From contig PS015242.1 of assembly GCA_048213135.1 (NCBI GenBank), positions 1,726 to 48,164 on the forward strand: DNA of 46,439 nt, given 5' to 3'. The notes below the pieces were generated by a model that ran no database searches, was not told the DNA's origin, and worked only from the letters and a program-made list of their open reading frames with translations. The stretch is from Reclinomonas americana ATCC 50394. Lineage: Eukaryota. Made by a program: the position numbers and the translations under genes. Positions 1 to 45,324 of the stretch are shown here, piece after piece (within the stretch, counting starts at the first letter, position 1; each line of letters opens with the position of its first letter).

Positions 1-1
1 C

Positions 2-8067: not shown

Positions 8068-10323
8068 CACACGCTCTCTATGGTGTGTGGCCATCAGCCT
8101 TGCACGTTCCGTAGCCAGTGCATGTGGGAGTGGGACTGCAGTTGCAGTTGGCATTAGTGTAGTCGCCAGTGCATCTCTCTTCCTCTTTGTCTATCTCTCT
8201 CTCTCTCTCTCTCTCTTATTACCTTCTCTTCTTTGCGTTCTCATTCTCTCTCTTTCGCTCTCTCTCTTTCTCTGCATGTGTGTCTGTCTGTCACTCAGAG
8301 TGAGAGAGAGAGAAGAAGCAGTACGACAAAGAGAAAGAAACAGTGACCGCGAAATAGAAAGAGAAGGCATGAAACGAGAGTTGATGCACTCAAGAGGAAG
8401 TGTTGCGCACGCGCGTGTGTGTGTGTTTGCATTCCCCTCTTCTTCTCTCTATGTCAGCAAGCAGACACCATACATACAACTCGGCTGCTTCTCTTTCTCT
8501 CTCTTTCTCTGGTTCTCTCTTTGTTCTCCCTCTCGGTCTCGCTGGTTCTCTTTCTATCTGTCTGTCTATCTGACTCTCTCTCCTTTGCTGTCTCTCTTTC
8601 TCTCTCTCTTTCCACCTCTGTCTGCCTCCCTCTGTGTCACCCTCCTCATTTCCCAAGGTGCTTGCAACGATTGCTTTTCATCTGTTATGAACAGATAGCT
8701 TGAATGCTGTGCATTCTGCATTGTATTCGCTGTTTTCTCATCGTTGCTCTCCCTTATTCCCTCTCTGCGTTGTGTCCTCATCTGTTTTCCTTCCCTTTCT
8801 CCCTCCTCGCAGAACGCGACGGTACCCTCGACAAGAAAAACGTACAGAAACTCAAAATCGTCCGCCAGCAAGTGCAGCAGCTCACCGAGGAAGGCGTGGT
8901 GCAACCGTTGCGTCTCGCCCTCCCCTCCTTCCATTCCTCCACCCTGTATCCCACTCACCCCACTTCACACAGTGGCGCAGCCGGTCGCGCCCCTTCAGTG
9001 GCTGGTCCTCGTCCGGCCACTGCTGGTGCACCGCAACCGCCACTGGGTGCGCAGCAACCCCCGATGCCTGCCGGCCCTCCACCCATTCCACCACATTTGT
9101 ATCCGCGACCCACCGATTCCGTGTATTACCACCCGGTCTCCAATCCATTCGGTATGCCACCGGCGGGCATGCCGCAGCGGTACCACCCGCCGTCGGCCAC
9201 GGTAATGCAGATTGCCGCAGCACAAATGCTTCAGCAGCAGCAGCAACAGCAGCAAATGATGATGGGTGAAGGATTCCAGCCTCCACTACCGCCGGGCCCG
9301 CCACCCACACGAGTTGCGTCGCGGGTCTTCTCGCTTGTCTTCTGCCTCCATTGCACTCATCGATCCTGCGCAGATGGAAGGCGCTGGTGGTGACGACGAC
9401 GACGACGATGACGAAGACGTGGAGGATCACGGCATCGGTGGTGATGATGATGATGATGACGACGACGACAGCGAAGGCGACGATGAGGAAGATGGCGACG
9501 GCGGAGATGATGGCATGGGCGGCGGTGGTGCACCAGACAGTGATGGCGACGGCGGAAGCGACGATGACGACGACGAGTTGGACTTGTCGGCGATTCCGAT
9601 TCCCGATGAGTTCCTGGAGGGCACGGTGTGTCACTCCTTCCCTCTCTCACTCTTCACGCTTTCTCCTTGTTCACTCGCGCATTTTCTCTCCTTAACAAAA
9701 GTCTGCGGCTCGGCCACCACCACCACCACCACCACAGCCACCTCGTCCGTACATGCCAGCTGGTGTACCACAACCGCCACTGCCGCCAGGCGCACCGCCG
9801 ATGATGATGATGATGGCGCACCCCCACGCGCATCCACCTCACCATCACCTCCAGCACCAGCCGCCGTTGCCGCCAGGCCCACCACCTGCCGGTCTTCTGC
9901 GCCCTCCCATGCCTGCTGGCGGTGGACCACCACCACCTCCCCAGCAACAGCAGCCAGGGATGATGATGCGGCAGCCTCCGCTTCCACCCGGACCCATTCC
10001 ACCGCACCTGCAGCCGGCTGGTATGCCGTACGGCATGCCGCCAGGGCCCATGATGATGATGGGTGCTCGTCCTCCGCCGGCTCAGCCACCGCTTCCTCCC
10101 ATGCCACCACCAGCGCACTTGATTGAGGAGCAGCGCAGAAAGGAGGCGCTGGAGGCCGGACGTGTGGTCACCAAGACGCAGGTCGTGGCCGCGCCGACCA
10201 TGAACGAGTTCACCGCCAAGCTCAAGCAGCAGCAGGGCAAGTTGCTGGCCGGCACGCAGATTATTCCCTCGACGGCGTCGGCGACGGGGTCCACGAAGGC
10301 GGCGTCGTTGCCGTCCGCGGCAG
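7190..10323 (+). CDS. WBP11: WW domain-binding protein 11 (NpwBP/SIPP1) homologue, splicing factor; partial, spliced
   Basis: Exons 7190-7197 and 7329-7385 give MGRKYTNKTKQGKMLNPTDAFR, matching the WBP11 N-terminal K.GK..NPTD..RK signature. Further exons: 8813-8906 (ERDGTLDKKNVQKLK..), 8973-9312 (PPPGPPP-rich), 9374-9625 (acidic, then DLSAIPIP) and 9702-10323 (Pro/Gly/Met-rich). All have GT-AG ends. One internal exon and the 3' end were not found. Confidence 0.85.
7523..7699. repeat. (TGAG)n microsatellite in WBP11 intron 2
   Basis: Runs of gagtgagtgagt leading into a 20-N gap. Confidence 0.95.
7921..8174 (-). pseudogene. Two tandem EGF/tenascin-like Cys-rich coding relics, antisense in WBP11 intron
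   Basis: Minus strand reads CTGDYTNANCNCSPTPTCTGYGTCKADG and CTGDYTNISCSCSPSFTCSGNGTCKADG in two ~140-bp units separated by an AG run. Confidence 0.6.
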
Positions 10324-10828
10324 GTGAGGGTTGGGGAAGGGAGGGGGGAAGGGGAAGAGAGAACAACTTGGGGAGTTAGGGAAAGCTTGGAGAGAATGTG
10401 CTTGACTGTTGTGCTCGAATTTCATCATCTTCTCAAGTTTTTCCTTTCTTCGTCCTCATGCTTCTTCCGTTCGTCATCGCAGGCATGGTTTTTCTTTCTT
10501 CATCGTCCTCCCTGTCCGTCTTGCTCCTTCCTCTCTTCTTCTCCTTCTTTTTCCTGTCTTCTTCTTCTTCTTCGTTCTCTTCTCCTCCGCTTCTGTCGTT
10601 TTACCTTTTCCTTATCTCTTTCTTTTTTTGCCTTCTCCTCCCCTCTTTCCTTTCTTCTTTCTTCTTTCTTTCATCTTCTTCTCCTCACTGTCCTTCTTCC
10701 TCTCTTTCTCTCTAACACTTATTCTGCCTTCGTCTGTCGTTGATTGCCTTCCCTCCCTTCCGTTCTCTCGGACTTCTCTTGTGTCTCACTTGTGTCCCTC
10801 CCTCGTTCTCTCTCCTTTCGCCCCCATT

Positions 10829-10922
10829 CTGTCTTCCCTCATGTCTTCCCCCATGTCTTCCCCCATGTTTTCCCCCTTGTCTTCCCCCTTGTCTTCCCCC
10901 TTGTCTTCCCCCTTGTCTTCCC
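10829..10922. repeat. 12-bp tandem repeat (TGTCTTCCCCC[A/T]) running into the gap
   Basis: About 8 visible copies. Confidence 0.9.
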
Positions 10923-11961
10923 NNNNNNNNNNNNNNNNNNNNNNNNNNNNNNNNNNNNNNNNNNNNNNNNNNNNNNNNNNNNNNNNNNNNNNNNNNNNNN
11001 NNNNNNNNNNNNNNNNNNNNNNNNNNNNNNNNNNNNNNNNNNNNNNNNNNNNNNNNNNNNNNNNNNNNNNNNNNNNNNNNNNNNNNNNNNNNNNNNNNNN
11101 NNNNNNNNNNNNNNNNNNNNNNNNNNNNNNNNNNNNNNNNNNNNNNNNNNNNNNNNNNNNNNNNNNNNNNNNNNNNNNNNNNNNNNNNNNNNNNNNNNNN
11201 NNNNNNNNNNNNNNNNNNNNNNNNNNNNNNNNNNNNNNNNNNNNNNNNNNNNNNNNNNNNNNNNNNNNNNNNNNNNNNNNNNNNNNNNNNNNNNNNNNNN
11301 NNNNNNNNNNNNNNNNNNNNNNNNNNNNNNNNNNNNNNNNNNNNNNNNNNNNNNNNNNNNNNNNNNNNNNNNNNNNNNNNNNNNNNNNNNNNNNNNNNNN
11401 NNNNNNNNNNNNNNNNNNNNNNNNNNNNNNNNNNNNNNNNNNNNNNNNNNNNNNNNNNNNNNNNNNNNNNNNNNNNNNNNNNNNNNNNNNNNNNNNNNNN
11501 NNNNNNNNNNNNNNNNNNNNNNNNNNNNNNNNNNNNNNNNNNNNNNNNNNNNNNNNNNNNNNNNNNNNNNNNNNNNNNNNNNNNNNNNNNNNNNNNNNNN
11601 NNNNNNNNNNNNNNNNNNNNNNNNNNNNNNNNNNNNNNNNNNNNNNNNNNNNNNNNNNNNNNNNNNNNNNNNNNNNNNNNNNNNNNNNNNNNNNNNNNNN
11701 NNNNNNNNNNNNNNNNNNNNNNNNNNNNNNNNNNNNNNNNNNNNNNNNNNNNNNNNNNNNNNNNNNNNNNNNNNNNNNNNNNNNNNNNNNNNNNNNNNNN
11801 NNNNNNNNNNNNNNNNNNNNGGATAAAAATGAAGAATGAGGAGATATTTGTGATATCTTGCATGATTGGTCATGATTGTGACAGTCGGCGAAGTGCACAT
11901 CACCAATTGTCGGACACTCTGACTTTCGAGGCACGCGACGAGAGAAGACCACCTCCAGTGA

Positions 11962-14059
11962 ATGACAGAGTTGCGTACACACACACGTGCACACTCTCTC
12001 TCCTCCACTCACTCTTTTCTCCCTTCACAGAGCACGGGACACTCTTGTCACGCTCCTCGGCAGTGACTCATCGCGCTCACTTCCGCGAATCTCCGAGCTG
12101 CTGCACGCGAACCCTGCACTGCTCACTGCCACTCTCCACAAGGGCCGCCACCAGACGCTGCTGCACCTGCTCGCACGACACGCACGCGTCGATGTGTGGA
12201 CGCACGTGGTCCGCCCAATGCTCCTCGCGCACTCGCCCTCGCCCTCGCCAGCTCTGTGCGCCACCGATGTGCACGGACTGACTCCGATGCATGTGGCGGC
12301 ACGATACGGGCGCGCGGACGATGCAGGCGTGGTGGCAATGCTGCAGGAGATGGTGGACATGTGTCCGGAGGTGCTGCGTGTTCGGGGTCCGACTGCGGCC
12401 GAGTATGCGCGCGTTCGCGGCAATCGGCGCATGGGAGCTGTGCTGGAGGCGATGGTGCCGCAGCAGGACGAGGGCGATGGGCAGGAGTCGCCGCCTGAAT
12501 TCAAGGTCGAATTGATGGAGACGGCGAGCCGACGGGGAGGTGAGTGGTGGGAGAAGGTGGCTGCATGAAGGCGTGCGAGGCCCTCACCTCCTTCAGCAGT
12601 TGCGGCCAGTCGGTACTCGCGGCACAGTCCTGAGTGGAAGGCGGCAAACACGGTGCAGGGGCGAGTGGCGCAACTGGAGCGAGAGGTGGCGGAGCTGCGA
12701 GCGGAACGAGGTGCGAAGTGGGATTGAGGGGAGAGGGTGGAGGCAACGGGTGACTGACCGCGTGCTGCAGATACGCTGCTGGACGATCGTCTGCGGGAGC
12801 TCAAGGTGGCGACCGACACCACCATGAGGCTGACGGAGAGTCAGCGGGAGGTGGAGACGCTGAAGGTGTGTGCACTGCACAACAACAACTCCAGCTGCCA
12901 GTAATTTCTCACCTTCTTTTGTTGCAGAAATCGATGGAGCGGCTGGAGCGCCAGAACCAGCGACTGCAAGACAAGCTGAGAAAGTGTGCCAGTGAGACAG
13001 GTAAACACTGGGTGGGTGCGGCACGACTGAATTCGGCCTGTGACTGACCGCGAGTGCACACAGTGAACCGCGATGCCTTGCTGCACACGCTGTGGCGCGA
13101 GGTGCAGTTCTACGAACAGGAAATGGCCCCACTGCTAGCCCCCGATGGTAAGTGCGACGCCACTGCTGCAGCAGGCTATGTACAGAAGACTCACTCGGCA
13201 AGCAGAGAGCGACGAGGAAACCCGCCGAGTGTGTCAATCGCTGCAAGAGCGAATTCGCGAGGCACTTGGACGCGCTCCCGAAGAACCGTTCGTGCCAACA
13301 ACCGTGCCGCTGCCAGATGCACTCGAGGAGGAGGAGGACGACGAGAAGGAGCAGGAGGAGAAGGAGAACGATGAGCCAGCAGTGGAGCGCGTGGGCCACC
13401 TGCTGAAAGAGTGCCGACAGCTGGGACCGACTGCGCGAAAACGCATGAAGCAGGCCGTGGAGAGGAAGAACAAGAAGGAGGAGGAAAAGGGGGAGCAGGT
13501 GGAGGAGCGAGCGGTGGAGGCCATGCGTATGATGCGTAACGAGGCCAACGTGGTCGCCGAGAGAGTTGCGTCGAGGACAGGGAAAGGGGGGAGGGGGGAA
13601 AGGGAAAGGGGGGAAAGGGAAAGGGGGAAGGAAAAAGGCAAGGGGAGAAAGAGAAAACGCAAAGGGAGACGGGGAAGGGCGTAAAGAAAGAAGGGCCTTG
13701 AGAAAAGGGGAACGGGAAACGAAGAGAAGAGAAGGGGAGGAGGGAAAGGGGACAGGGGTTGGAAAGAGAAAAGAGATCAAGAAAGGAAGAAGGAAGGAGG
13801 CGAGGAGGGAAAAGGGACGGGTAAAACGAAAAAAGAAGAAAAGGGGACGGGAAAATGAAGAAGAATAGAATGCGGGAGGGATAGAAAAAAGGTGAGGGAG
13901 AGGGCATCACTGACAACAGCCTCTCACTCTCCTTGTCGTTCTACCATTCATTCCCCACCACACAGCTCACCGCCCAGCGTCGTGCCCTCCTGCAAGTCAC
14001 GCAAGCCGACAGTGAGCTGGCCACGCAGCTGAGAGCCGCCGATCAGGCCCACGAGGCAG
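11962..14059 (+). CDS. Ankyrin-repeat plus coiled-coil protein; spliced, 3' end lost in gap
   Basis: ATG ACA GA|intron|A GCA CGG. Ankyrin motifs GRHQTLLHLLARH, DVHGLTPMHVAARYG and GPTAAEYARVRG. Later exons are heptad/charged (RVAQLEREVAELRAER; KSMERLERQNQRLQDKLRK; LTAQRRALLQVTQ). Confidence 0.8.
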
Positions 14060-14080
14060 NNNNNNNNNNNNNNNNNNNNA

Positions 14081-16237
14081 ACGACAACAATTTGTGCCGC
14101 CGATCATTGTCGATGTTGGTGCGTGCGACTCGCCGCCTGCTGAGCCGTTGCTTCTTCTCACCGCACACCGGTTGTCCGAAAAGGTGCCGGTGACTGTAAC
14201 CACAACCTGAACGACGCCTCCGATGCCTTCTTCTTCGCCAACCAGATGGCCAAGCACGATGTCCGAGTGTTTGCGTTCGAGCCGAGTGGTCTGCCATTCA
14301 ACTGGTTGGAGAGCGTCGCCGCCACCATGCCGGAGGGCCGATTGACGCCGATGCAAGTGGGCCTCAGCAACGTCCCGCATCTTGGCCTGCCGCTCTACTC
14401 CATGTCGCCTGTGCGAGAGAATGTGAGAAGAAGCATCTCATCTGCTCGTCGCTGGTGGAAATCCGCGTACTGATTTTTCCACACTTCCAGGGCTTGAATA
14501 CGATGCCGTGCATGTTCAGGTGCGAAAAGAGTGGGATGGGAATTTGACGTCATTGTAAGTGTTGGCTCATCACGTCTCCTCTGTCGCTGCAGCTTGCGCG
14601 TTCCAACTGAGTTGGATATTCAAACTGGTCTCGACGTTGACCCGTTGGAGACAGTGCCCGTGACCTCTCTTGATGCGTTTGCGGCCACCGACGGTGTCGC
14701 GAGATCACTACTTGGTGGTATTTCGGGCACAAGAAAGATCTTCTACGTCAAGGTGCGTGTGTGCAAGCGCATGAGGACTGCGGCGCCCTTTGCACACATT
14801 TCTCACTCTGATTATTGTACGCAGATTGACGTGGAAGGGTGGGACTCGCAAGTGATTGAGGGCATGGATCAGTTGCTGTCGTACGACAAGGTGGACATGT
14901 TCTCGTTCGAGTACGGACCGTATTGGAACGATGGTGTGTGGTGGTGGTGGTGGTAGAGAGAAAGAGAGAGAGGCAAAGCGGGAAGCATAGGTGCAAGAAC
15001 AGATCTAGAGAACGGAACACACAGATAGAGAGAGGAACAGATGCAGCGAAAGGAAACAGCTGCATACAACACAGGGAGAAGAAGAGAACAGAACACAGTG
15101 GCAGAGAGAGAGAGAGAGAAATGGAAAACACATAGAAACGATGAAGAGCATGGGAGAAAAAGGGATGCAGAGGAGTGGAGGTGCAAGAATAGGAGCAGAG
15201 GGGACGGAACACACCGAGAAACAGCGAAGAGCATGGGAAAGGCTGCAAACGGAAAGGTTTTCTCACTGGCGCCGCTTGGCGTGCCGTGTACACGCAGTGT
15301 TCCTCGCCGCCACCTTTAATTCCTCGTACGTGCCTCCCAAGTCCACTTCGGGGCTCCCCTTGCCGAACCTCTCTTCGGTTGTCAAGAGGCTGGATGAAAA
15401 GGGATTCGATGTGTTCATTCTTGGTGTCGGCGTGTGCATTCCTGTGACGGGGAAGTGGTGGCAGGTGCGCGATTGCAGAGAGGGAGAGAGGATAGGGACT
15501 GATGAGAGAGATCAAGTTTGAGAAGGGCACGCTGTTGAAGTGCAGCGATTGCAGATATTTTATGACCCTGTGGGTGTGAGAGAAAGAGAGCGCAAGTACG
15601 TCGTGAAAGACACGTGGTTGACTTGCACGTGCATCGATGGCAGTTACAGCAGTGAGTGATGGCGGTAATGACCCGATGCGTTGCTGAAAGAGCGAGTGAG
15701 TGAGTGTGAGAGAATGACAAGCATGTGGGGTGCACTTGCATCGCCTGCAGTTACAGTAGTGACGGATAGTGATCGAGACCATGTGGATGAGGAAGTGCGA
15801 AAGAGAGAGAGAAGGGAAAGATAGAGTTTGCGAAGTAGGTGACTGATCTTGACCTTGCATGTGCGTGATTGAAGGAGAAGTCTAGAAGTGAGAAAGGAAT
15901 GAATGAGCACCAGTGAGGGAACTGGTGAGTGAGTAATCAAGTGAGAGAACGAGAGAGAGAGAGAGAGTGAAAGAAAGATAGAGACAACGTCTCTGACGTG
16001 CACACGACACGTGTTGGCAGTCACTCGAAGACGACGGGTCGGCAAAAGTTTCTAATGTGTGCTGGTGGTGCGCAGGACGTGTACGAATTCTGTGGCCTCG
16101 GCGCCGGATTGCCTCTGCTTTCCTCTCCAACAGAGTGCGTACAAGATGTACTGGCCATTCGCCGGGGCAGCCCGCTACGCCGACCAGTGCTGGACGAGTG
16201 CAACTTTGGCAATCTCAAGTGGCATGTCGACGAGTGA
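14081..16237 (+). CDS. FkbM-family SAM-dependent methyltransferase; spliced, 5' end in gap
   Basis: Spliced product has IIVDV|GAG, VRVFAFEP, QVGLS, VPVTSLD, YVK|IDVEGWD.VI.G, FSFEY and RLDEKGFDVF in canonical FkbM order. Last exon 16077-16237 ends in TGA. Confidence 0.85.
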
Positions 16238-26763: not shown

Positions 26764-26799
<36 letters not shown>

Positions 26800-29700: not shown

Positions 29701-30197
29701 CTGTCAATCGCACACGCAGTGTGAGTCCCAACGCAGTCAGTATATTCTTGACTCGCTCACTCACCGAACGCGAGCGCAGCCACACTGCTCCACCACCACA
29801 ACTTGAAGCAGACGAATCAGCGGCGCCATAGTTGTTCCAACCTGCACATGCGAACGTCAGCCCACAGCCAGCGTCAATGAACACGTAAGAAGAACAGACC
29901 GCCACGGCCATTGCTACCCGCAAAATTGCCAACAAACGCACTTGTGATCACGACAAGTGAAGTCTGAGTGAGAGAATGAGGTGAGAATGGAGGTGCCTGA
30001 GAATGCCAAGATTTACAGCCATAACTTGATAGAGGGGAAGGGAAATGTACAGCGCGCCACCTCCAGAGTCGCCGAGGCTGCTCGTGCCACTTCCCTGATT
30101 ACTGTCACCTACAGACACATAGTAGAATACACACAAACACAATGATACACATGCACGCACGTGTGAGACAGGATATGAGTGTGTGACAGGCCTGTGG

Positions 30198-30240
<43 letters not shown>

Positions 30241-30368
30241 NNNNNNNNNNNNNNNNNNNNNNNNNNNNNNNNNNNNNNNNNNNNNNNNNNNNNNNNNNNN
30301 NNNNNNNNNNNNNNNNNNNNNNNNNNNNNNNNNNNNNNNNNNNNNNNNNNNNNNNNNNNNNNNNNNNG

Positions 30369-30446
<78 letters not shown>

Positions 30447-32410: not shown

Positions 32411-32451
<41 letters not shown>

Positions 32452-33119
32452 GTANNNNNNNNNNNNNNNNNNNNCTCCTCCTCCTCCCTCCTCTCCTCCT
32501 CCTCCCTCCCTCCCTCCCTCCCTCCTCCTCTCTCTCTCTCTCTCTCTCTCCCCCTCTCCCCCCACCCACCTGTGACCACCAACTGCGAGCCGGCCGACGT
32601 CAAATCATAATCGCCCGCCACCAACCACACATTCATCGTCGTCCACGTCGTCCCCACCGACGCCACACTGAATCCCTGCGCGCCTACACACGCATCCACC
32701 GCCTGATCCAGTGTACAAGGCGAATCCACATCCTCCCCGCAGGCGTCAGTGCCCAGTGAGCCTCCCGGCGACACATACACTACACACAAAATCGGACAAA
32801 ATCAATCAATCCTTCTCTGTTTTCTCTCTGTCTCTCTTTCTCAGTCTGCGTGTGTACCTTGACACGTGTCGGCAGTCGACGCTGGTGGTGTAATGACAGC
32901 GCGAGTGGCGAATCGGTGGTGAACATGGCCGGTGGACGACGGCACAACGGCCGCACTCGCTCTTGATCGCACACTCGGTAACCAGTTTGCTGGCGATGTG
33001 TGTGGCGACGATGGTGATTCATGAGCTGCTGTTTCTATTGCTGTTGTGGAGTACACCGCTGTAATCATTAATATCGTGACTGCGATGATGAGTAGCTTGG
33101 TCGCATTGATGGCGGTCAT
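16494..33119 (-). CDS. Large secreted Pmp-like (GGA/FxxN) beta-helix + Cys-rich (GCC2/GCC3-like) + multi-pass membrane receptor-like protein, about 40 exons
   Basis: Signal peptide MTAINATKLLIIAVTILMITAVYS at 33119. VYVSPGG..CGEDVDSPCTL cap. Dozens of F..N / GGGA[VLI] repeats. DVFGQ segment. Cys-rich CPAGLQY..CEACPTGTY..CLPCPLNVDCQGG..CPYDYC..PLCGACL|DGY..ECIPC. Several hydrophobic helices with FTLQ, FGVLYDAYR..WF, RRLVLL and PY..ENIME|TISL motifs. Ser/Pro-rich tail, TAA at 16494-16496. Confidence 0.85.
26808..27225. repeat. Complex-sequence tandem repeat, unit 120-121 bp, about 3.5 copies, intronic
   Basis: ACAA[A/G]TCCCT at 26821, 26942, 27062 and 27183. Confidence 0.9.
29579..29642 (-). 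other. Probable GC-AG intron
   Basis: GGA G|gcgaga...ttgacag|GT GCC. It is the only phase-1 donor available, at the position where 12 sister introns use GT. Confidence 0.65.
30199..30510. repeat. (CA)n microsatellite with internal gap
   Basis: Long cacaca runs flank the Ns at 30241-30367. Confidence 0.95.
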
Positions 33120-33947: not shown

Positions 33948-36900
33948 TCACGCGTCGCCCAACATGCCACTCTCCTCGGCACTCGCGCACAGCGCCAGCG
34001 CCTCCTGCAGCTCCGACGCCATTCTCTCCGGCAACGCGTTCACCAACGACGCAAAACTCTCACTCGCGGCGGCGTTGAATTGCGTCATGAAACGGTAAAT
34101 GTGTGCCTGTGGGGGGTGGACGCGAGGAGTGAGACGAGGAGGAGAGGAGAAAATGGAGGTTGTTGTGTATGCGCGCGTACCGAGAGGTTGATCTTGAACA
34201 CGGGGTCCTCGTCCACGTCGGGGTCGCTGAAGCCCACGGCGTCGTCCTCGTCTTCCATCACCACTTGGTTGAGCGCGGAGACGAGGTCGCTGTAGGGGGG
34301 AAGGAGATGAGAGAGGAGATGGAATGAAGGGAGGGAACAGAAAGTGAGAAACAGGAATGGGGTGAAGAATAAACGACAGAGGAGACAGGGGATGAGACGA
34401 TTGGGGAGTGGAGACGACGAGGAGTGGAGACGAGGAGGAGTGCAGACGAGGAGGAGTGCAGACGAGGAGGAGTGCAGACGAGGAGGAGTAGAGTGAGGAG
34501 GAGTGGAGGTGAGGAGGAGAGAGGGTGAGTAGAAACGAAGGAAGTGGAGAGACGAGGAGGAAGAGTGGAGACGAGGGGGAGTGGAGAAAAAGGGAGTGGA
34601 GACAAGCAGCCAGGCAATGGAAGGGAGAGACGAGGCGAATGGAGATGGGGGAAGTGGAGACGAGGGCGAGTGGAGACGAGGGCGAGTGGAGACGAAGAGG
34701 GAGTGGAGACGAAGAGGGCGTGGAGACGAAGGGAGACAGGAGACGAGGAGGAGTGGAGACGAGGGCGAGTGGAGACGAGGAGGGAGTGAAGATGAGGGGG
34801 AGTGGAGACGAGGGCGAGTGGAGACGAAGAGGGAGTGGAGACGAAGAGAAGTGGAGACGAGGAGGAGTGGAGACGAAGGGAGACAGGAGACGAGGAGGAG
34901 TGGACACGAGGGGAGGGAGTGGAGACGAAGGGAGTGGAGACCAGGAGGCGGAGAGGCGAGGGGGGGGGGGGTGGCGGACACGAAGAGGCGGAAACGGAGA
35001 GGCGGAGACGAGCAGCCAGGCAATTGAAGGGAGACGCGAAGGAGAGACGAGAGGAGACGAGAGGAGACGAGAGGAGACGAGAAAGAGAGAAACAGGAATG
35101 CAACAATACATTTTGCACGCAACTCATAGTCCTCTGCCGGCGCAAACATGCTTTGCGGTCCTCCTCCAGCCTGCAACAATTTCTATCAAAAACCACACTT
35201 CAACAGCGGGAAACGAAAACATGCACGCACCGCTGCACCGCTGAAACGCGCCACAAACGCCTCGTCGTCCTCGTCGTCGTCATCATCATCGTCACCACCC
35301 TCCTCATCGTCATCCTCATCATCGTCGTCATCGTCGTCCCCGGCATCATCATGGGCGAGACCGAACAGCTTCTTCGTGCGCACGTGTTGCACGTCGCGCG
35401 TGAGGAACGTGACGAGGAGCATGAACAGCCGCAGGACGGCCGGCATCGGCTCAAAGTTGAACTCGGCCGGAGCTGTACGCACACACATATCAGACCTCTG
35501 TTTCCATACAGTCCGCCGCCGCCCGCCACTCACCCATTTGCTTGGACTTGGAGCGCGTCATCATGCCGCTCTTTGCAAAGGCCTTGGAGCCCGGCAACCG
35601 GAACATGACGGTGAATTCTTGCACTCGTTCCGGACTCTCGCTCAGCAGCTTGGTGATGGCGCACGTGCTGTGATCAATGAAAACCAACGATCAGCACCAC
35701 GAGAAAAAGGGTGTGAACGTGGACGCGTCATCACCTCCGTTGCAGTTCAAACTTGCTGACAAACGACATGATCGAGGACGGCCACTTGTTCAACAATATC
35801 TGCAGGCCATTCACTTGCGCGGGAACATTGTCCAGGGAGCCGACGGCAAACGTCTGCAGCCACTGCGCCATGGCTGTGACAGCATTGTCAGCATCAAGTG
35901 GGGCATAGTGCATTTCACGCAGTCACTCACACACCTTCCACGTCCTTGTGATCGGTCCCGGTGGGCGATGGGGGCGTTGGAATGCTGAAGCTGCACAGCA
36001 GATCCAGCAGAGCGTCGCCATGCAGAATGTAGAGGTGGACGAGAATGCTCGATAGCCTCTGTGGCGCGAGGAAAATGAGCGGCAGGGTGATAGGTGGGGA
36101 AGGAAAAGCGTCAACAAGCACGGAACGTGTGCCATGGACGGGTCGTACGTCCACGCAAGTCGCTGTGTCACGGCCAGCACCATGTTGGAGAAGTGCGGTT
36201 GCATGGCCTCCGGGAACTGTGGGGTGTGAGGGAAAGGGAGGCAGTGAGGGGAGGAGGGAGGAGGGACGAGAGGGAGGAGGGACGAGAGGGAGGAGAGGAG
36301 AGGAGAGGGAGAGAGAGGGAGGAGAGGGGAGGAGTGGGGAGGAGTGGGGAGGAGAGGGGAGGAGAGGGGAGGAGAGGAAGAAGGTAGGGAGGGTGAGCGT
36401 AGAACACGACGAGAGAGAGAGCGCGCAACGCGACGGGGGAAAGCGTGGAACACGACGGGGGAAAGCGTGGAACACGACGGAGAGAGCGTGGAACACGACG
36501 GCGAGAGCGTGGAACACGACAGGAAAGAGCGTGGAACACGACAGGAGAGAGTGTGCAACACGACGCGAGAGAGTGTGCAACACGACGCGAGAGAGTGTGC
36601 AACACGACGCGAGAGAGTGTGCAACACGACGGGGTAAAGCGCGGAACACGACGCGAGAGAGCGTGCAACACGACACGAGAGAGCGTGCAACACGACGGGA
36701 GAGAGTGCGCAACACGACGGGAGAGAGCGTGGAACACGACATGAGAGAGTGTGCAACACGACGAGAGAGAGCGTGCAACACGACAGGAGAGAGTGTGCAA
36801 CACGACAGGAGAGAGTGTGCACTACGACAGGAGAGAGTGTGCAACACGACAGGAGAAAGTGTGCAACACGACAGGAGAGAGCGTGGAACACGACGGGGGA

Positions 36901-37196
36901 AAGCGTGGAACACGACGCGAGAGAGCGTGCAACACGACACGAGAGAGTGTGCAACACGACAGGAGAGAGTGTGCACCACGACAGGAGAGAGTGTGCACCA
37001 CGACAGGAGAGAGCGTGGAATACGAAGGAGAGAGCGTGGAATACGAAGGAGAGAGTGTGCAACACCACAGGAGAGAGTGTGCAACACGACAGGAGAGAGA
37101 GTGCAACACGACATGAGAGAGCGTGCAACACGACAGGAGAGAGTGTGCAACACGACGGAGAGAGCGTGGAATACGAAGGAGAGAGCGTGGAACACG

Positions 37197-37232
<36 letters not shown>

Positions 37233-40200
37233 ACAACGACGAGAGGAGAGTGTGCNNNNNNNNNNNNNNNNNNNNNNNNNNNNNNNNNNNNNNNNNNNNN
37301 NNNNNNNNNNNNNNNNNNNNNNNNNNNNNNNNNNNNNNNNNNNNNNNNNNNNNNNNNNNNNNNNNNNNNNNNNNNNNNNNNNNNNNNNNNNNNNNNNNNN
37401 NNNNNNNNNNNNNNNNNNNNNNNNNNNNNNNNNNNNNNNNNNNNNNNNNNNNNNNNNNNNNNNNNNNNNNNNNNNNNNNNNNNNNNNNNNNNNNNNNNNN
37501 NNNNNNNNNNNNNNNNNNNNNNNNNNNNNNNNNNNNNNNNNNNNNNNNNNNNNNNNNNNNNNNNNNNNNNNNNNNNNNNNNNNNNNNNNNNNNNNNNNNN
37601 NNNNNNNNNNNNNNNNNNNNNNNNNNNNNNNNNNNNNNNNNNNNNNNNNNNNNNNNNNNNNNNNNNNNNNNNNNNNNNNNNNNNNNNNNNNNNNNNNNNN
37701 NNNNNNNNNNNNNNNNNNNNNNNNNNNNNNNNNNNNNNNNNNNNNNNNNNNNNNNNNNNNNNNNNNNNNNNNNNNNNNNNNNNNNNNNNNNNNNNNNNNN
37801 NNNNNNNNNNNNNNNNNNNNNNGAGAGAGAGAGAGAGAGAGAGAGAGTGCAACACGACAGGAGAGAGTGTGCAACACGACGGGAGAGTGTGTGCAACACG
37901 ACGCGAGAGAGTGTGCAACACGACGGGAGAGAGTGTGCAACACGACGCGAGTGAGTGTGCAACACGACGCGAGAGAGTGTGCAGCACGACAGGAGAGAGT
38001 GTACAACACGACAGGAGAGAGTGTGTAACACGACAGGAGAGAGCGTGGAACACGACGCGAGAGAGAAGGAGTGCACGCTTGCTCCACTCTTCAGCGCGCT
38101 CCCTCCATCTCTCTCCCCCTCTTCCCCACTCACCCTCCTGAACATCTTGACGACCAAATTGGTGATGTACAACATGGCCAGTTCGTTTTCGTGCGACAGC
38201 ACACGGAACACAAATTGCACAATCCACTCGAATGCCGTGTATTCCTCCGTCCGCCACGTTGTGAGCAGCGTCTGGTCGTGGCGCAGAAGCGAGCGCAGTG
38301 CCTCGCAGCCGGACTGATGAAATACAAGGGAGACAAAGAATCAGATAATCGCTCATTCCGCACCACTATACCGCTGTCATATCATCACGCCTCCTCTCCT
38401 TTCGTCTGTGTCACTTCCTCCTACACTCTCTTCGTCTACTTCTTCTTTTGACATTCCCATTTCCTTTCACGTTCTCATTCTTCAACGTTTGCTTTTTGTT
38501 TCACACTCACAATAAGTGTCTCCTTTCGCCTTTTTCTCTCTCCCTCTCGCTCTCCTTCCCCTCTTCCTGTTCCTGTTCCTGTTCCACTTCCACTTCCACT
38601 TCCTCTTCCTCTTCCTCTTCCTCTTCCTCTTCCTCTTCCTCTTCCTCTTCCTCTTCCTCTTCCTCTTCCTCTTCCTCTCCCCTCCCCCTCCCTCTCCCTC
38701 TTCCTCTTCCTCTTCTCTCTCTCTCTCTTCCTCTTCCTCTCTCNNNNNNNNNNNNNNNNNNNNNNNNNNNNNNNNNNNNNNNNNNNNNNNNNNNNNNNNN
38801 NNNNNNNNNNNNNNNNNNNNNNNNNNNNNNNNNNNNNNNNNNNNNNNNNNNNNNNNNNNNNNNNNNNNNNNNNNNNNNNNNNNNNNNNNNNNNNNNNNNN
38901 NNNNNNNNNNNNNNNNNNNNNNNNNNNNNNNNNNNNNNNNNNNNNNNNNNNNNNNNNNNNNNNNNNNNNNNNNNNNNNNNNNNNNNNNNNNNNNNNNNNN
39001 NNNNNNNNNNNNNNNNNNNNNNNNNNNNNNNNNNNNNNNNNNNNNNNNNNNNNNNNNNNNNNNNNNNNNNNNNNNNNNNNNNNNNNNNNNNNNNNNNNNN
39101 NNNNNNNNNNNNNNNNNNNNNNNNNNNNNNNNNNNNNNNNNNNNNNNNNNNNNNNNNNNNNNNNNNNNNNNNNNNNNNNNNNNNNNNNNNNNNNNNNNNN
39201 NNNNNNNNNNNNNNNNNNNNNNNNNNNNNNNNNNNNNNNNNNNNNNNNNNNNNNNNNNNNNNNNNNNNNNNNNNNNNNNNNNNNNNNNNNNNNNNNNNNN
39301 NNNNNNNNNNNNNNNNNNNNNNNNNNNNNNNNNNNNNNNNNNNNNNNNNNNNNNNNNNNNNNNNNNNNNNNNNNNNNNNNNNNNNNNNNNNNNNNNNNNN
39401 NNNNNNNNNNNNNNNNNNNNNNNNNNNNNNNNNNNNNNNNNNNNNNNNNNNNNNNNNNNNNNNNNNNNNNNNNNNNNNNNNNNNNNNNNNNNNNNNNNNN
39501 NNNNNNNNNNNNNNNNNNNNNNNNNNNNNNNNNNNNNNNNNNNNNNNNNNNNNNNNNNNNNNNNNNNNNNNNNNNNNNNNNNNNNNNNNNNNNNNNNNNN
39601 NNNNNNNNNNNNNNNNNNNNNNNNNNNNNNNNNNNNNNNNNNNNNNNNNNNNNNNNNNNNNCTCTGTCTCCCTCTTCCTCTTCCTCTTCCTCTTCCCTTT
39701 TTGTCTTCCCCTCCTTCCCCTCTTTCTCCCCTCGCCTCACCGTGATAACCTCCATGGTCTCCGTGTGCATGAGCACAGTCATCAGCGGCACAAAGTACGT
39801 CTGCAGCAGGAACTCGCCGGCCTCCGTGCCCGCCACCGACATGTTGCCAAACACTTTCGAGAGCATGTCCACCGCTTGCTGCGCGTACATAGTGAACAAG
39901 AGATATTGCCAAGCCAAGCAACCAACCCCGCACTCACCTCCACCAACGCCTTGTTGTCGGCATTTGCGTGCTCGAGAATCTGCACGATCGGTTCGTGGAT
40001 GTGTCGCAGCACGTGTTCCACGGCGCCCGGAGTGCGCAGCATGCAGCCGATAATGTCAAACACGCCGGTCTGCAATATACAGGGTGAGGATGCTGAAAAA
40101 CAAGGCGGGATTGTTGACGACAAACCATGAGCAGCACGTCGTCGTTAAAACGATGCCACACACGAATGAGCGCAGCGGAGACTTGGTCCGCCGCCGCCTC

Positions 40201-43200
40201 GGTCACTTGCGGATCCAACTGCGGCGCGTGTACGAGTTAGTCAACAATCGAATGGGGGTATCCCTCTCTCCCAGCCCACCTCCAAAGCCGGCAGCAGCGT
40301 GTTGAACACCGTGTCCATGGACTCCTTCTCCGCCGTCTCAATCAAGCGCGTGGCGTTGTCAGCAATGGTGGCGGCAAACGGCGCAAACATTGAGTTGTCC
40401 TCGGCGTCCTCCAGCATACTGCGAGTGGGCGGGAATAGAGGTGAGACGGCGCAGCGGAGTTGCATTGCACGAAACACAAGAGATGCGCACTTGTGCAGCG
40501 CCTGACACGCAGAGTACTTGACGGGCACCGGCATGGACGGGTGCATCGAGTCCGTCATCAACGTCAGCACGCGCTCCCTGCTGACCGTCTCGGTCTCTTG
40601 CAGCAGCGAGAAGTGCGTGCCGAGGTACCACAGCGCGCGGCCGTGCAGGTAGAGGTTGGCTGTGAGGGGGGAAAAAAGGGGAAGGCAGTGAGGGGGAAGG
40701 GGTGACGGGGCAGGGGGAAGAGGAGAAGGGTAGGGCGAAGGAACGCAAAAGAAGGGGAAGGAAAGCGGAGAAAAGCGAAGGGGAGGGAAGGAAAGCGAAG
40801 AAATGCGAAGAAAAGCGAAGAAAAGCGAAGAAAGGCGAAGAAAAGCGAAGAAAAGCGAAGAGAAGCGAAGAAAAGCGAAGAGAAGCGAAGAGAAGCGAAG
40901 AAAAGCGAAGAAAAGCGAAGAAAAGCGAAGGAAAGCGAAGGAAAGCGAAGGAAAGCGAAGGAGAGGGAAGGTGAGGGAAGGAAAGGGAAGGAATGCGGAG
41001 GAAAGCGAAGGAATGTGAAGAAACGCGATGAAATACGAGGGAATGTGAGGGAATGCGAAGGGCGATGGGGATGCAAGAAGGAGAGAGTGAAATAGACACA
41101 ATAAACTGCAGAATGTAGAACAGAGAAAGGAGAGGAATGAACACAGAGAAAAATTACAAGAGAGATCAGAAAGCAAACAGAAATGACAAGAGCACTTTGA
41201 CAAAAGGACTGCAACATAGACTGAGGAAGTGAGCAGAGCGAGGGAGGAAAAGAAAGAGACATCCTTCACACGGCTACTTATACGATTATCTGAATACAGC
41301 TAACTCTCCACCTCCATTCCCTCTCATTTTCTCCGAGCGCTCAACCATGCGACACAAGATCATCAGACTGTTCGGAGCCTCAACTCAAACCCAAAGAACG
41401 TAGATCTGCATGAGCTGAAGTGCGTGGAGACGGAAGGGATACGAAACACAACAGGAAACGATAGCGTGAATAGAGAAAGCGGGTGCAACTCATTTCTTCT
41501 CTGTAGATTCTCTCTTCTCCTCGTCTCCACCTCTCTCCACCTCTCTCCCCTCTCTCCACTCCACCTCTCTTCACCTCTCTCCACTCCTCTCCTCCTCTCT
41601 CCACCCCCATTCCCCTTTCCTCCTTCCTCCTTCCCCCTTTCCCATCTCCCTCCCCTTTCCCTCTTTCCCCTTCCCCTACAAACCTCCCCCCGACAAATCA
41701 TCGCGAATCAACACCTCGGCCACCTCCGTGCAACTGTACGGCAACTTGACCGCCTCCACATCACCGTCGGCCTCCATCAGCATGTGCTTGGACATGTGGC
41801 CGAGGAAGAGCACGCTCACTTCGCGCAGCTTCCACCAGCTGGAGGCGGGGTCGGCGACCGACTGCGCCGCCGCCTGCTCCATGCTCTTCATCACGGCATT
41901 CAGCAGTGCCTCCACCGCCAGCTCCTCAAACGATGACAGCATTTGCTGTGCGCAGAGGGGAGTGAGCGCGGAGGGAATGGAAAATAAGTGTGCGTGCGCG
42001 GCACTCACCAATACAAGCTCCACGGCAAAGGTGCGCACGGTGAACTCCATCGAGTCTTCGTCCTCGGCACACACGTACTGGTTTGCATCGTGCAACCACT
42101 CCTCTTCCTGTGAGGCAACAGAAAAGGTTGGCTTTCTCTCACATCATCTGTTCGTGGCTCTCTCCGCGTGTATGTGTATATATGTGTGTACGTGTGTTCA
42201 TGAGAGTGTGTGTGTGTGTGTAAGCGAGCGTGAGTGTGTGTGTGAGAGTGAGTGTGTGTGTGAGTGAGTGTGTGTGTGAGAGTGAGTGTGTGAGGAGAGT
42301 GAGTGCATGAGTAAGAGGGAAGAGTGTGAGTGAGCGAATGAGTGAATGAGTGCTTGCGTGAGCGAGTGAGAGAGTTAGAGAGAGAAGCGTGTGTACGAGT
42401 GTGTGTGCGCGTGTGTGTGTGTGTGTATCAACCAGTCCTCGTCAATTCTCCCTCAGTCCCTCTCTGTTTCACCCTCAGTTTCTCTCTGTTTCATCCTCAG
42501 TTTCTCTCAGTCTCTCTCAGTCTCACTCTCTCTTTCTGCCTCTTCTCTTTCTCTCAGTCTCTGTCAGTCTTTGCCTGTCCCTGTCCGTCTCTGACAGCCG
42601 TTAGTATCTGTTAGTCTCTGACCGTCTCTGCACTGTCTCTGTCAGTCTCTGTCAGCTCTGTCAGTCTCTGTTAGTCTTGTCAATCTTTGTCCGTCTCTAC
42701 ACTCTGTGACTCTCTGTCCGTCTCTGTTAGTGTCTTGTCAGTTTCTGTCTGTTTCGGTTCTGCCTTTCACAATCTGTCTCAGACTCTCTCTCTCTCTCTT
42801 TTCTCTCCCGCTCTCTCTTCTCTCCCTCTCTCTTCTCCCCAGTCTCTCTCTCCCAGTGTCTCTCTCAATTGACAGTGCATGCACTGGCGGTCTCGCGAAC
42901 TGGGCGCCACCTCGTCTCAGGCAGTGGACTTACCGATTGCTCTGTGCGTGTGTGGTCACTGGAGTCATTCACCCAAGTGCAAGAGCCTCTCTTTGTCTCT
43001 CACAGTCTCTCTCTCTCTCTCTTCTCTCTCGCTCTCAGTCTCTCTCTCACTCTCCGTCATTCTCTCGCAGTCTCTCTCTTCTCTCTCGTAGTCTCTCTCC
43101 CTACTCTCTCGCTCTCATTTTCTCTCTCATTCTCCCTCTTCCCCCCTCTCCCTCCCTCTTCGTCCCTCTCCCCCCCTCTCTCCCTCTCCTCCCACCCATC

Positions 43201-45324
43201 CACCCACCTGCTCCGAAGTAATTTGCGAGTACTGAATGACCTGCGTGAGGAACATTTCCAGGTTGGGCGCCAGTCGCTCCGAAAAGCCGGCGCTCTTCAC
43301 CAAAATGGTGGTCAGCACACTGAACAGCTGCGCCGCCACGAGCGACAGCCCGCGTCGATCGCCTTCGCTGTCGTACCCGTCCTCCTCCTCCAGCACCGAG
43401 TCGCCCTGCACCTCGCCTGCACGCGCAAACAAGTGAGGAAATATACCGCGAATGCAATGGAGGGAGAGCGCGCACCGGCGAGATACAGCGGCAGCAAGCC
43501 ATCAAAATAGGCGTACACCAGCTCGCCAATAGAGCTCATGTAGCGCTTGATCGCCTTGGAAAAGTAGGAGACGAGTCGGTTGATGATTTTCAGTGCGCCC
43601 ATGTGCAGCTGGTCATTGGCAGCCACCGGCTGCATGAGAATGTTGGCGAGCGTCTCCAGCCATGCTTCGGCGAAGGCGCGGGCGTGGCGGGTGGTGGTCT
43701 TGGCTGTGCGCGACAATAAGGGGAAGGAGGGAGGGAGGGGAGAGAGAGGAGTTGTGGCGCAACGCAACTCGGTTCGCCCATGTGCACGAGCATCAGTGGG
43801 GAGAGCATGTTGATCGCCGTGTCCAGAGCGCGCTTGCGCATTTTCATGGCGTAGGGCTGGGAGTGGGGTAAAGGGGAAAAGGGGGGTTAGGGGGAAGGGG
43901 GAGAAGGGGGGAAAAGGACAAGCGAGAGAGGGGGGCGAGAGAGGGGGAGCGAGAGAGGGGGAGCAGCGAGTGGGGGAGCGCGAGTGGGGAGCAGCGAGTG
44001 GGGGAGCAGCGAGTGGGGGAGCAGCGAGTGGGGGAGCAGCGAGTGGGGGAGCAGCGAGTGGGGGAGCAGCGAGTGGGGGAGCAGCGAGTGGGGGAGCAGC
44101 GAGTGGGGGAGCAGCGATTGGGGGAGACCGAAAGGAGAGAGCATAGGAGGAGAGCGAAGGGGGGAAAGCAAAGATGCGAGGAAAGTGAAGAGATGAGATG
44201 AACGTGACAGCGACGGGAGAGCAGAAGGGGCAAGGGATGGAAGAAAACACATACCTTGTCAGCACAAGATACAATTCTGACGAGTTCTGGGCACAACTGC
44301 TGCATGGCAACAGCGTAGTTGTCGCTGTCAAAGTCTTCCGAGAGGAGATTCAAAGCCTTGACGCCACCGTAAACCTGCCCATGCGGCAATGGAGGTGAGG
44401 ATGGATGGTGAATGATGAGACTGCAAAAGCACGTCGACATACCTGGAGTGGATCGTCAGAGCGTGTCAACAGGATGAGATTGTCCAGCAAGTCGGGCCAG
44501 TGTTCGGGCCAGTCCTGGCGGCCGATGGTGGCCACGATGCGGCACTGTGGAAGCAAATGACAAGGTGAGTAACAAGGCTGGAGAGCGGAGGAGAGCAACG
44601 AGGCGACCAAGAGGATAAGAGTAACGAAGCGAGCGAGAGGAGGAGAGCGACGAGGCGAACGAGAGGTGGAGGCGAGCGACGAGGCGAGCGACGAGGCGAG
44701 CGAGAGGAGGAGAACGACGAGGCGAGCAAGGGGAGGAGAGCGACGAGGCGAGCGAGGGGAGGAGAGCGACGAGGCGAGCAAGGGGAGGAGAGCGACGAGG
44801 CGAGCGAGGAGATCGAAGAAGCAAGTGAGAGGAGGAGATCGACGAGGCAAGTGAGAGGAGGAGAGCGAGAGGAGGCGAGTGAGAGGAGGAGAGCAAGAGG
44901 AGGCGAGCGAGAGAAGCAGAGCAACGACGCGAGCGAGAGGAGGAGAGCGACGAGGCGAGCGAGAGGAGGAGAGCGACGAGCCGAGCGAGAGGAGCAGAGC
45001 AACGACGCGATCAAGCACTCGCAGAAACCACCCACACTGCCGGCTCCATCCACGCAACAAAAGTTACACAGATTTTGTACGACGGGTGCAGCAGCATGCC
45101 CAGAATCGTCGAACGAATCCACTCCTTCTCCTCCACCGTGATAAGTCCGCCCTGCCACTCCCGATAGATCAGCGTACGCAGATTCACACCGGCTGAGTGC
45201 GCGAGCAACGGTGATGAGCAACGGAACAGAACGGAGGTCTGCGAGACGGAAGATTAGCATATCTGACGCAAGAGCTCGTGCTGCGACTCATCCGTGGCAA
45301 GAGTGTAGAGAACACTGGCGCAAC
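33948..45324 (-). CDS. IPO9: Importin-9 (karyopherin beta family); spliced, first exon not identified
   Basis: Exons give LLRQ|SAGVNLR..EW, IGRQDWPEHWPDLL, YDSEGD, YSQITSEQ|EEEWLHDANQYVCAEDED..FTVR, WWKLRE, LHGRALW, SGCEALRS, MMTRSKSK, an acidic loop and EDPVFKINL. These are collinear with importin-9 signature segments. TGA at 33948-33950. Confidence 0.92.
34400..34945. repeat. Degenerate GAGTGGAGACGA(G/A)G minisatellite in an importin-9 intron
   Basis: The core gagtggagacga recurs at about 15-18 nt spacing. Confidence 0.85.
36403..38062. repeat. About 20-22-bp minisatellite (GAGAGAG[T/C]GTG[C/G]AACACGAC) in an importin-9 intron, with a central gap
   Basis: Dozens of contiguous variant copies with no unique spacers. 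Confidence 0.92.
40790..40960. repeat. 10-bp tandem repeat (A[A/G]AAGCGAAG)
   Basis: About 17 copies, intronic. Confidence 0.92.
42872..42985 (+). pseudogene. Isolated single WD40 blade of the array family, antisense inside an importin-9 intron
   Basis: TVHALAVSRTGRHLVSGSGLTDCSVRVWSLESFTQVQE. Shares GTGCGTGTGTGGTCACTGG with array repeats and is flanked by (TC)-rich DNA. Confidence 0.75.
43966..44127. repeat. 15-bp tandem repeat (GAGTGGGGGAGCAGC)
   Basis: About 10 nearly perfect copies, intronic. Confidence 0.95.
44625..45008. repeat. About 26-bp degenerate repeat (GAGGAGGAGAGCGACGAGGCGAGCGA)
   Basis: Multiple variant copies, intronic. Confidence 0.8.
45197..45262 (-). other. AT-AC intron in importin-9
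   Basis: CGT CAG|atatgcta...ctcgcgcac|TCA GCC. 66 nt with an in-frame TAA. Removing it restores the conserved RQxA motif. Confidence 0.75.

Follow-up and report, generated by a model that had tools for sequence, protein, structure and literature searches.

Recurrent GTTGCGT donors in a Reclinomonas americana contig and a possible shifted register of U1 pairing

In human genes all validated noncanonical registers of pairing between the 5′ splice site and U1 small nuclear RNA (snRNA) together account for 1.5% of 201,541 sites (PMC4856993). The same source attributes the shifted register to Roca and Krainer 2009, gives ACA/GUCAAGUAUA as its model oligonucleotide in the legend to figure 1B (here and below a slash marks an exon boundary), and counts 68 predicted bulge sites at +2/+3 and 51 at +3. 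We examined the word GTTGCGT, which recurs at the start of predicted introns in a stretch of contig PS015242.1 from Reclinomonas americana ATCC 50394 (assembly GCA_048213135.1, positions 1,726 to 48,164, forward strand). This stretch, hereafter the window, is 46,439 bases long and contains 13 runs of N, 4665 N in total.

How do the GTTGCGT donors compare with the human sites? Like the human shifted (+1) sites as described in PMC4856993, they begin with GU, carry the remaining consensus one base deeper and, in a small sample, mostly seem to follow an exon end that is missing its last G. Cleavage at those human sites stays at GU with U1 one base off, and the same would hold here. Unlike the human shifted sites of that account, they consist of one fixed word at some 12–16% of predicted introns, have the core GCGU rather than AAGU, and carry a seemingly obligatory U+7. 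The human bulge +2/+3 sites (Roca et al. 2012, via PMC4856993) share with them the GUU start and a consensus displaced by one base. Those sites, however, keep the pairing of G at −1 in that description, whereas the −1 position of the GTTGCGT donors is G-poor and A-rich.

A second comparison is with lineages whose donors depart from the usual consensus. Roy and Bowser (bioRxiv 10.1101/2022.06.08.495308) report GUUUGU donors with a co-evolved U1, AACAAAC, in Entamoeba, and GUGCGC donors with U1 ACGUAC in Mastigamoeba balamuthi. The ordinary donors of the window resemble those of Mastigamoeba in their C at +4 (GTGCGC, GTGCGA, GTACGC), and Entamoeba donors normally have T at +3. In the duplex model given below, both donor classes of the window would be accounted for by a changed U1 arm. 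Unlike the Archamoebae, which that preprint describes with one donor consensus, the window would hold two registers side by side. The Mastigamoeba literature on introns and splice sites, as far as it was searched, describes no second donor class, and the window fits poorly with the intron density (3.4 per gene) and GC content (60.7%) given for Mastigamoeba in PMC8136499; no sequence match connects the two. Thecamonas trahens and the Mamiellales (GYGCGY), according to the same preprint, have donors with C at +4 but keep a standard U1. Their GYGCGY-type donors are like the ordinary donors here, but no second, shifted class is described for them in that source, and a standard arm of this kind would pair with GUUGCGU very poorly (−0.9 to −2.6 kcal/mol). 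No GTTGCG donor class is described among the matches listed in our literature search. The sequence matches among them were primers or unrelated RNAs; the work on shifted U1 registers listed there concerned humans and other vertebrates or tunicates, and none of it protists.

Recurrence and reading frame

GTTGCGT is present in 13 copies in the window, against 5.59 ± 2.47 expected, and none of 100 shuffles reached 13. For the strand test, positions 1–15500 were treated as a block of plus-strand genes and 16300–45400 as a block of minus-strand genes. Of the 13 copies, twelve are sense with respect to the local genes and none is antisense (two-sided binomial p = 0.0005); the thirteenth (45844, plus strand) is outside both blocks, beyond the importin-like gene. 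When all 7-mers are ranked by strand asymmetry GTTGCGT comes 134th of 11,520, and since tandem repeats dominate that ranking the direct 12:0 count was used instead. The drop in coding score is larger at the 12 sites than at 2414 other sense-strand GTs (p = 0.005). The best acceptor 40–160 nucleotides (nt) downstream also scores higher than for the same controls (median 7.6 vs 4.7, p = 0.03), by a position weight matrix trained without the GTTGCGT junctions; three GTTGCGT sites score poorly for a nearby acceptor because their introns are long. Among the predicted introns the word occurs in all three codon phases. We conclude that GTTGCGT is a real, recurrent, strand-specific, donor-like signal.

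The sequence-only reading of this DNA had listed ten such donors, and every one of its coordinates and strands matches exactly; three further copies (29622 and 31168, minus strand; 45844, plus strand) bring the number to 13 (table 1).

Table 1. Copies of GTTGCGT in the window and the introns that they would begin.
8907 to 8972, plus strand: putative intron of 66 nt in the NpwBP/WBP11-like gene, donor acc/GTTGCGTCT, phase 2
9313 to 9373, plus strand: predicted intron of 61 nt in the NpwBP/WBP11-like gene, donor cga/GTTGCGTCG, acceptor 9374, phase 0
11970 to 12030, plus strand: putative first intron of 61 nt in the ankyrin-repeat gene, a weak candidate, donor aga/GTTGCGTAC
13565 to 13965, plus strand: predicted intron of 401 nt in the ankyrin-repeat gene, donor aga/GTTGCGTCG, acceptor 13966, phase 0
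18003 to 18079, minus strand: predicted intron of 77 nt in the membrane-protein gene (junction ENIME/TISL), donor gaa/GTTGCGTTG, acceptor 18002, phase 0
18247 to 18389, minus strand: predicted intron of 143 nt in the membrane-protein gene, donor ttg/GTTGCGTCC, after an exonic G, acceptor 18246, phase 1
18451 to 18516, minus strand: putative intron of 66 nt in the membrane-protein gene, donor aag/GTTGCGTCG, after an exonic G, phase 0
29579 to 29622, minus strand: GTTGCGT following a beta-helix repeat exon, after an exonic G, phase 0
31123 to 31168, minus strand: GTTGCGT followed after 46 nt by an acceptor-like CAG, without coding support
34290 to 35123, minus strand: possible intron of 834 nt, a weak candidate, donor tga/GTTGCGTGC, phase 2
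43704 to 43768, minus strand: predicted intron of 65 nt in the importin-like gene, donor cga/GTTGCGTTG, acceptor 43703, phase 1
44545 to 45058, minus strand: predicted intron of 514 nt in the importin-like gene, donor ttt/GTTGCGTGG, acceptor 44544, phase 0
45844 to 45850, plus strand: GTTGCGT in CT-rich, non-coding-looking DNA

The reading frame is informative where a long open frame is closed soon past the donor and is followed, from the next good acceptor on, by another long frame in exactly the phase that the donor leaves. Six sites are informative and consistent in this sense (9313, 13565, 18389, 18079, 43768 and 45058). At 9313, 203 codons are open upstream, read-through stops after 26, and 250 codons are open from the acceptor at 9374 on; the remaining GTs in this phase are of the GTCTTC type, and the posterior of the expectation-maximization (EM) search described below is 1.0. 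The posterior is again 1.0 at 13565, where 142 codons upstream are followed by a stop after 39 and the acceptor at 13966 leads to 75 codons in the required phase. The 18389 junction is frame-consistent, with 98 codons upstream, 115 downstream and a downstream coding score of 18.5. Across the 18079 intron the frame switches (114 codons upstream, 86 downstream); the EM posterior is 0.93 among nine same-phase GTs, and the ENIME/TISL junction is as had been claimed. At 43768 the GTTGCGT is the sole usable same-phase GT, lying between 39 codons upstream and 130 downstream (downstream coding score 9.7). Read-through at 45058 stops after 15 codons, and the acceptor at 44544 opens an exon starting CRIVATIGRQDWPEHWPDLL; 44577 offers an alternative in-frame acceptor.

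The putative introns at 8907 and 18516 are both 66 nt long, in frame and free of stops, so that the frame is uninformative for either. Both were picked by exon-chaining dynamic programming with the learnt donor model, and the body of the 8907 intron is rich in C and T, with a branch-like CTCAC before the terminal CACAG. Retention of 8907–8972 (plus strand) or of 18451–18516 (minus strand) would add 22 residues and leave the protein unbroken. The donor at 11970 has a strong acceptor (TTCACAG) and fits only with a start ATG at 11962, which leaves a coding exon of 8 nt. At 35123 the phase fits an acceptor at 34289, but just 19 codons are open upstream. The phase at 29622 misfits the next repeat exon, at 29578, and fits an acceptor at 29439, 183 nt away. 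The frames upstream of 31168 span 18–25 codons with poor coding scores, and all three frames around 45844 have strongly negative coding scores. Two of the long candidate introns are filled with minisatellites, at 34394–34948 (periods 16 and 49, in the 35123 intron) and at 44583–45010 (periods 14 and 26, in the 45058 intron). Elsewhere, a 22-nt repeat array surrounds a run of N at 36395–38065.

How abundant is the class, and is it recovered when the search is not told of it? The input to the EM search was 39 junctions from coding-potential exon chaining with neutral GT donors (exons of at least 40 nt, introns of at most 500 nt, no N), and the search was started at random over all phase-compatible GTs, a mean of 3.5 per junction. 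This phase-restricted form replaced two others: neutral-GT exon-chaining dynamic programming alone was too noisy, and EM with a single position weight matrix drifted to GTGTGT repeats. With three components the search recovers tgA/GTTGCGTCG (weight 0.18) together with a GTG.GT type and a GTGCGC type. GTTGCGT is the best donor at five of the 39 junctions, and the same component takes GTTTCGT (25608) and GTTGCTT (39922). A second exon-chaining pass, run with the learnt donor mixture and restricted to sense-strand introns, places GTTGCGT at 10 of 84 predicted introns overall and at 8 of 49 among the introns of at most 150 nt without N. This amounts to roughly 12–16% of predicted introns, an approximate share because the models were trained within the window, merge some neighbouring genes and contain gaps of N. 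The 49 short introns (median length 66 nt) comprise 21 with GTG, nine with other GTT donors, eight with GTTGCGT, six with GTC and five with GTA. The proposal that GTTGCGT forms a sizeable second donor class in the window is supported by the 10 of 84 introns and by the unsupervised recovery. The ordinary donors are mainly GTGCG(A/C) and GTGAGT; all four bases occur at +3.

Sequence rules and the position of the cut

Several rules set the class apart. The T at +7 is one: GTTGCGT has 12 sense and no antisense copies, against 7 and 9 for GTTGCG followed by A, C or G (Fisher p = 0.003). Among nine ordinary GTGCG donors of short introns, by comparison, +6 is A in five, C in three and T in one. Ordinary GTGCG donors thus mostly do without T at +6 while this class needs T at +7, so that GTTGCGT is not simply the common donor with a T added. 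An earlier description of it as the common GTGCGT plus one T is right in that the GCGT core lies one base deeper than in the GTGCG donors, and fails at +6, where one in nine ordinary donors has the T. Positions +3 to +7 of GTTGCGT copy the usual +2 to +6 of the ordinary GTGCG(N)/GTGAGT donors. A sister class with GTTGAG was not found in the window (7 sense vs 6 antisense).

The exon end is the other rule. The −1 base before the 12 GTTGCGT sites is A in six, G in three, C in one and T in two, whereas before 32 non-GTT donors it is G in 21, T in six, C in three and A in two (A, p = 0.003; G, p = 0.02; a small sample). GA stands at −2/−1 in 5 of the 12 sites and echoes the GAG/ that precedes several ordinary donors.

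These counts bear on one of the mechanisms that the sequence-only reading had put forward, a bulged register. In such a register U1 would pair with exonic −1 and with +1/+2, one U of +2/+3 would be bulged, and +4 to +7 would be paired. Such a helix predicts the ordinary frequency of G at −1. What is seen is 3 of 12 vs 21 of 32, with A enriched instead, and the A-rich, G-poor −1 position is better fitted by a shift of the whole helix. Registers with a bulge at +2/+3 have experimental support in humans in the account of PMC4856993, and the three sites that do follow a G, at which a bulge would keep the −1 pair, could use one. For the class as a whole we regard the bulge as distinctly unlikely.

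Could the word instead have been carried in by recently spread intron-generating elements (introners), inherited with them rather than selected as a signal? An identical 7-mer does start many short introns of similar length. An alignment of nine GTTGCGT introns, however, shares only positions 1–7 and the final AG, with a mean column identity of 33%, so they are not copies of one element. We give the introner explanation almost no credence. The 3′ halves of these introns are like those of the others, with a CTCAC/CTCAT-like motif 15–35 nt before CAG.

Introns of the U12 type have the donor consensus /[AG]TATCCTT and the branch consensus TCCTTAAC. We considered and rejected this type: the donors here read GTTGCGT(C/T), and the CTCAY-like motifs and CAG are those of the other introns.

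Where is the cut made? Other same-phase GTs are present at five of the six informative sites, and the frame alone therefore never fixes the donor. Additional evidence on GTT-type donors comes from the beta-helix gene. Its middle part (25300–29800, minus strand) is a run of mini-exons of about 50–90 nt with two alternating repeat types, ...F.GN.A..NG.GG and ...GGGA(I/L/V)......, which continue uninterrupted in the 2.3-kb exon at 22574–24904. We examined 25 GGGxx motifs, 12 in the mini-exon region and 13 in the flanking large exons. In 9 of the 12 mini-exon units a GT lies exactly six codons later, in phase 0. The nine donors at that position are GTGAGT (four times), GTGAGG, GTGTTG, GTTTGG (28677), GTTCGT (28410) and GTTTCG (25608). 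Donors with T at +3 thus occur at the position at which GTGAGT donors are cut in paralogous introns, and this speaks for a cut before the GT in GTT-type donors. The argument covers related GTT donors, GTTGCGT not being among the nine.

The repeat units also speak against the idea that the cut falls elsewhere, either three bases on, as a GC–AG intron (GTT/GCGT), or at a neighbouring same-phase GT with GTTGCGT acting like an enhancer. A same-phase GC does lie at +3 of every site, and the same-phase GTs just counted include GTGCGCA at 18362. Yet there is no other usable GT at 43768, and the paralogous units put GTTTCG, GTTTGG and GTTCGT exactly where GTGAGT is cut. The motif is found in each of the three codon phases, so its GTT is not a codon. 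We know of no precedent for a GTT fixed in the exon ahead of so poor a donor as GCGTNN. A cut away from the GT of GTTGCGT is, to our mind, improbable enough to deserve little weight.

The sequence-only reading had further pointed to three parallel forms (table 2).

Table 2. Parallel forms of the shifted-type donor.
25533 to 25608, minus strand: predicted intron of 76 nt in the beta-helix gene, GTTTCGT, the same shape with T at +4, donor tac/GTTTCGTCG
36059 to 36126, minus strand: possible intron of 68 nt, GTTCCGT, donor cac/GTTCCGTGC
22569 to 22575, minus strand: GTTGAGC, claimed as a donor, overlapping the TGA that ends an 883-codon frame

The first stands well: the GT at 25608 is the only one in its phase, the frame is consistent, and it lies exactly six codons past GGGxx, where the paralogous repeat units have GTGAGT donors. 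The second is plausible, since the acceptor at 36058 agrees with phase 0 at 36126 and is followed by 43 codons. The third found no support and was rejected as a donor, with a stop one codon later, no qualifying acceptor within 200 nt and a donor score of −8.9. Position +4 can thus vary in this class, as +3 does in ordinary donors: GTTTCGT (25608) is used, and GTTCCGT (36126) probably is too.

A frame-validated intron of 44 nt at 39879–39922 (minus strand) has the donor ttg/GTTGCTTGG, a near-variant of GTTGCGT with T at +6, and an intron of 56 nt at 40125 (minus strand) starts GTTTGTCGT. At 40490 (minus strand) a GTGCGCA donor has a same-phase GTTTCGT 15 nt downstream, at 40475, a possible tandem pair of ordinary and shifted types.

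Pairing with U1

What arrangement might account for these rules? We propose that the GTTGCGT donors belong to ordinary U2-type GT–AG introns with which U1 would pair one base downstream (+1) of its usual register, on a retuned 5′ arm; both the register and the arm are what we infer, and we consider the proposal about as likely to be right as wrong. The cut would fall before the G of GT, while the part that pairs with U1 (GCGT, preceded by exonic GA) would lie one base further downstream than in ordinary donors such as (GA)G/GTGCG and G/GTGAGT. When GA/GUUGCGU is laid over GAG/GUGCGN, all positions match except U+2, which stands in place of G+1, and the cut is one base upstream. In the shifted register the intronic G+1 would take the place of the exonic G−1, U+2 would be mismatched, and +3 to +7 would be paired. 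The mismatch at U+2 must be compensated, hence the invariant GCG, U+7 and A−1: the lost pairs may be offset by the near-invariant GCG core, the obligatory U+7 and the preference for A at −1. The 5′ arm of U1 would carry a G opposite the C at +4. The cleavage site itself would be set later, by the GU, during recognition by U6 and U5.

We calculated duplex energies with a nearest-neighbour model and assumed U1 arms. The standard arm, AUACUUACCUG, gives −0.9 to −2.6 kcal/mol on GUUGCGU. With a G opposite +4 (ACGUAC or ACGCAC) the same donor reaches −5.3 to −8.9 kcal/mol in the shifted register, GUGAGU reaches −8.7 to −9.7 kcal/mol, and GUUGAGU, which is unseen in the window, reaches −0.9 to −1.9 kcal/mol.

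On the other hand, a dedicated variant U1 or another snRNA, with an arm like ACGCAAC, might read GUUGCGU in the normal register, with GTGCG/GTGAG donors left to a second U1, so that two systems of recognition would run in parallel. In the duplex model that arm binds the class best (−11.4 to −11.9 kcal/mol). The class is sharply bounded, with no extension to GTTGAGT, and its +7 T is obligatory, as a dedicated reader would have it; arms of U1 that co-evolved with their donors are also on record in Entamoeba and Mastigamoeba (bioRxiv 10.1101/2022.06.08.495308, as described there). But the ACGCAAC arm gives −3.3 to −9.5 kcal/mol on ordinary donors, and GUGCGC and GUGAGU bind it poorly (−6.5 and −3.3 kcal/mol). 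This explanation therefore needs two U1 species, and the A-rich −1 position and the GA exon end are equally explained by a shift. We think a dedicated U1 unlikely.

No snRNA gene in the window bears on the choice: a search of the window against Rfam gave no matches at gathering thresholds, and the 28 sub-threshold matches at E ≤ 1 were all to microRNA (miRNA) or small nucleolar RNA models on low-complexity hairpins. No transfer RNA genes were found in the window either.

Several points weigh against the shifted register, or against the strength of the class on which it rests. The earlier description of ten frame-validated introns holds for six of them; two are frame-neutral (8907 and 18516) and two are weak (11970 and 35123). 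The gene models, the codon table and the position weight matrices were all trained within a 46-kb window with 4665 N, so that the denominators 84, 49 and 39 are rough. The donor at 18389 has a real same-phase alternative 27 nt downstream, the good ordinary donor GTGCGCA at 18362. The GC three bases into every site is in phase too, and the frame does not separate a cut at GTT/GCGT from one before GTT, although GCGTNN is unlike the ordinary donors. A T at +3 is also found in donors that look in register (GTTAGT, GTTTGT, GTTCGT), and +3 T alone is thus not diagnostic. Three of the 12 sites follow an exonic G (18516, 18389 and 29622). Lastly, U+7 contributes only about 1 kcal/mol in the duplex model, in which the U1 arms are assumed.

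Gene context and the meaning of a possible second register

The genes in which these donors lie, and their neighbours, are as follows.

1 to 7000, plus strand: tandem WD40-repeat genes
about 8700 to 10400, plus strand: NpwBP/WBP11-like gene (Pfam PF12622, E = 1e-08)
from about 11960, plus strand: ankyrin-repeat gene (Pfam match)
17745 to 21900, minus strand: membrane-protein gene
22574 to 32800, minus strand: very long right-handed beta-helix gene (PF13229, E = 3.7e-19)
about 39700 to 45300, minus strand: importin/exportin-like gene, with weak but consistent matches

The WD40 genes have near-identical C-terminal tails (...VRVWST..GLARQE...MRAVQEMQREG...VVVHRR...) and contain five runs of N and no GTTGCGT. 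At 32385–32580, purine-rich and pyrimidine-rich low-complexity arms flank a gap of 20 N in a hairpin-like arrangement; the many sub-threshold matches to miRNA models that this region draws (best 53 bits vs a gathering threshold of 137) are most likely low-complexity noise.

The importin/exportin-like gene was searched exon by exon. A 155-residue exon (41679–42143) has importin-9 as its sole PDB match (E = 0.22), and the exon starting CRIVATIGRQDWPEHWPDLL matches exportin-5 (E = 0.0075), exportin-1 and importin-9. In the PDB search no karyopherin was matched by the exon upstream of 45058, and all that came up for the exons around 35123 was an acidic low-complexity match and PPR-like noise. A full HMMER scan of 1.84 billion representatives with the 155-residue exon gave four matches at E ≤ 0.001, the best of them 39% identical. 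They include a partial coding sequence of the glomeromycete Ambispora leptoticha and a transcript of the variosean amoeba Phalansterium solitarium, and all four are too distant to fix the junctions. A separate search for homologous proteins at longer lengths found nothing for this exon, and a metagenome scan with a 165-residue exon of the membrane-protein gene returned 233 pattern matches, none of which was confirmed. For the gene labels that had been assigned beforehand this means that NpwBP/WBP11 and ankyrin agree with Pfam, that the importin label depends on weak matches, and that membership of 35123 in an importin-9 gene finds no support. Nor was a gap-free alignment of KICVTF/CRIVATIGRQDWP to importin-9 confirmed, karyopherin matches being found for the downstream exon and none for the upstream one.

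What would a second register mean for this organism? It may routinely run two 5′ splice-site registers, with between roughly one sixth and one third of the introns beginning (G)A/GUUGCGU, the cut still at GU and the U1 arm retuned to the GCG core; we put this just short of an even chance. Shifted and bulged registers of U1 are known as rare human exceptions. If they can form an abundant, fixed class, the register of U1 would be an evolvable part of the splicing code. The organism would offer a natural system in which U1 register and the choice of cleavage site are uncoupled genome-wide, with hundreds of natural tests of how the spliceosome picks its cut site with U1 one base off. This would be of relevance to splice-modifying drugs and to pathogenic donor variants. 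Gene finders trained on GT[AG]NGT would mis-call a sizeable share of exons, and introns such as those at 8907 and 18516 would be silently read through.

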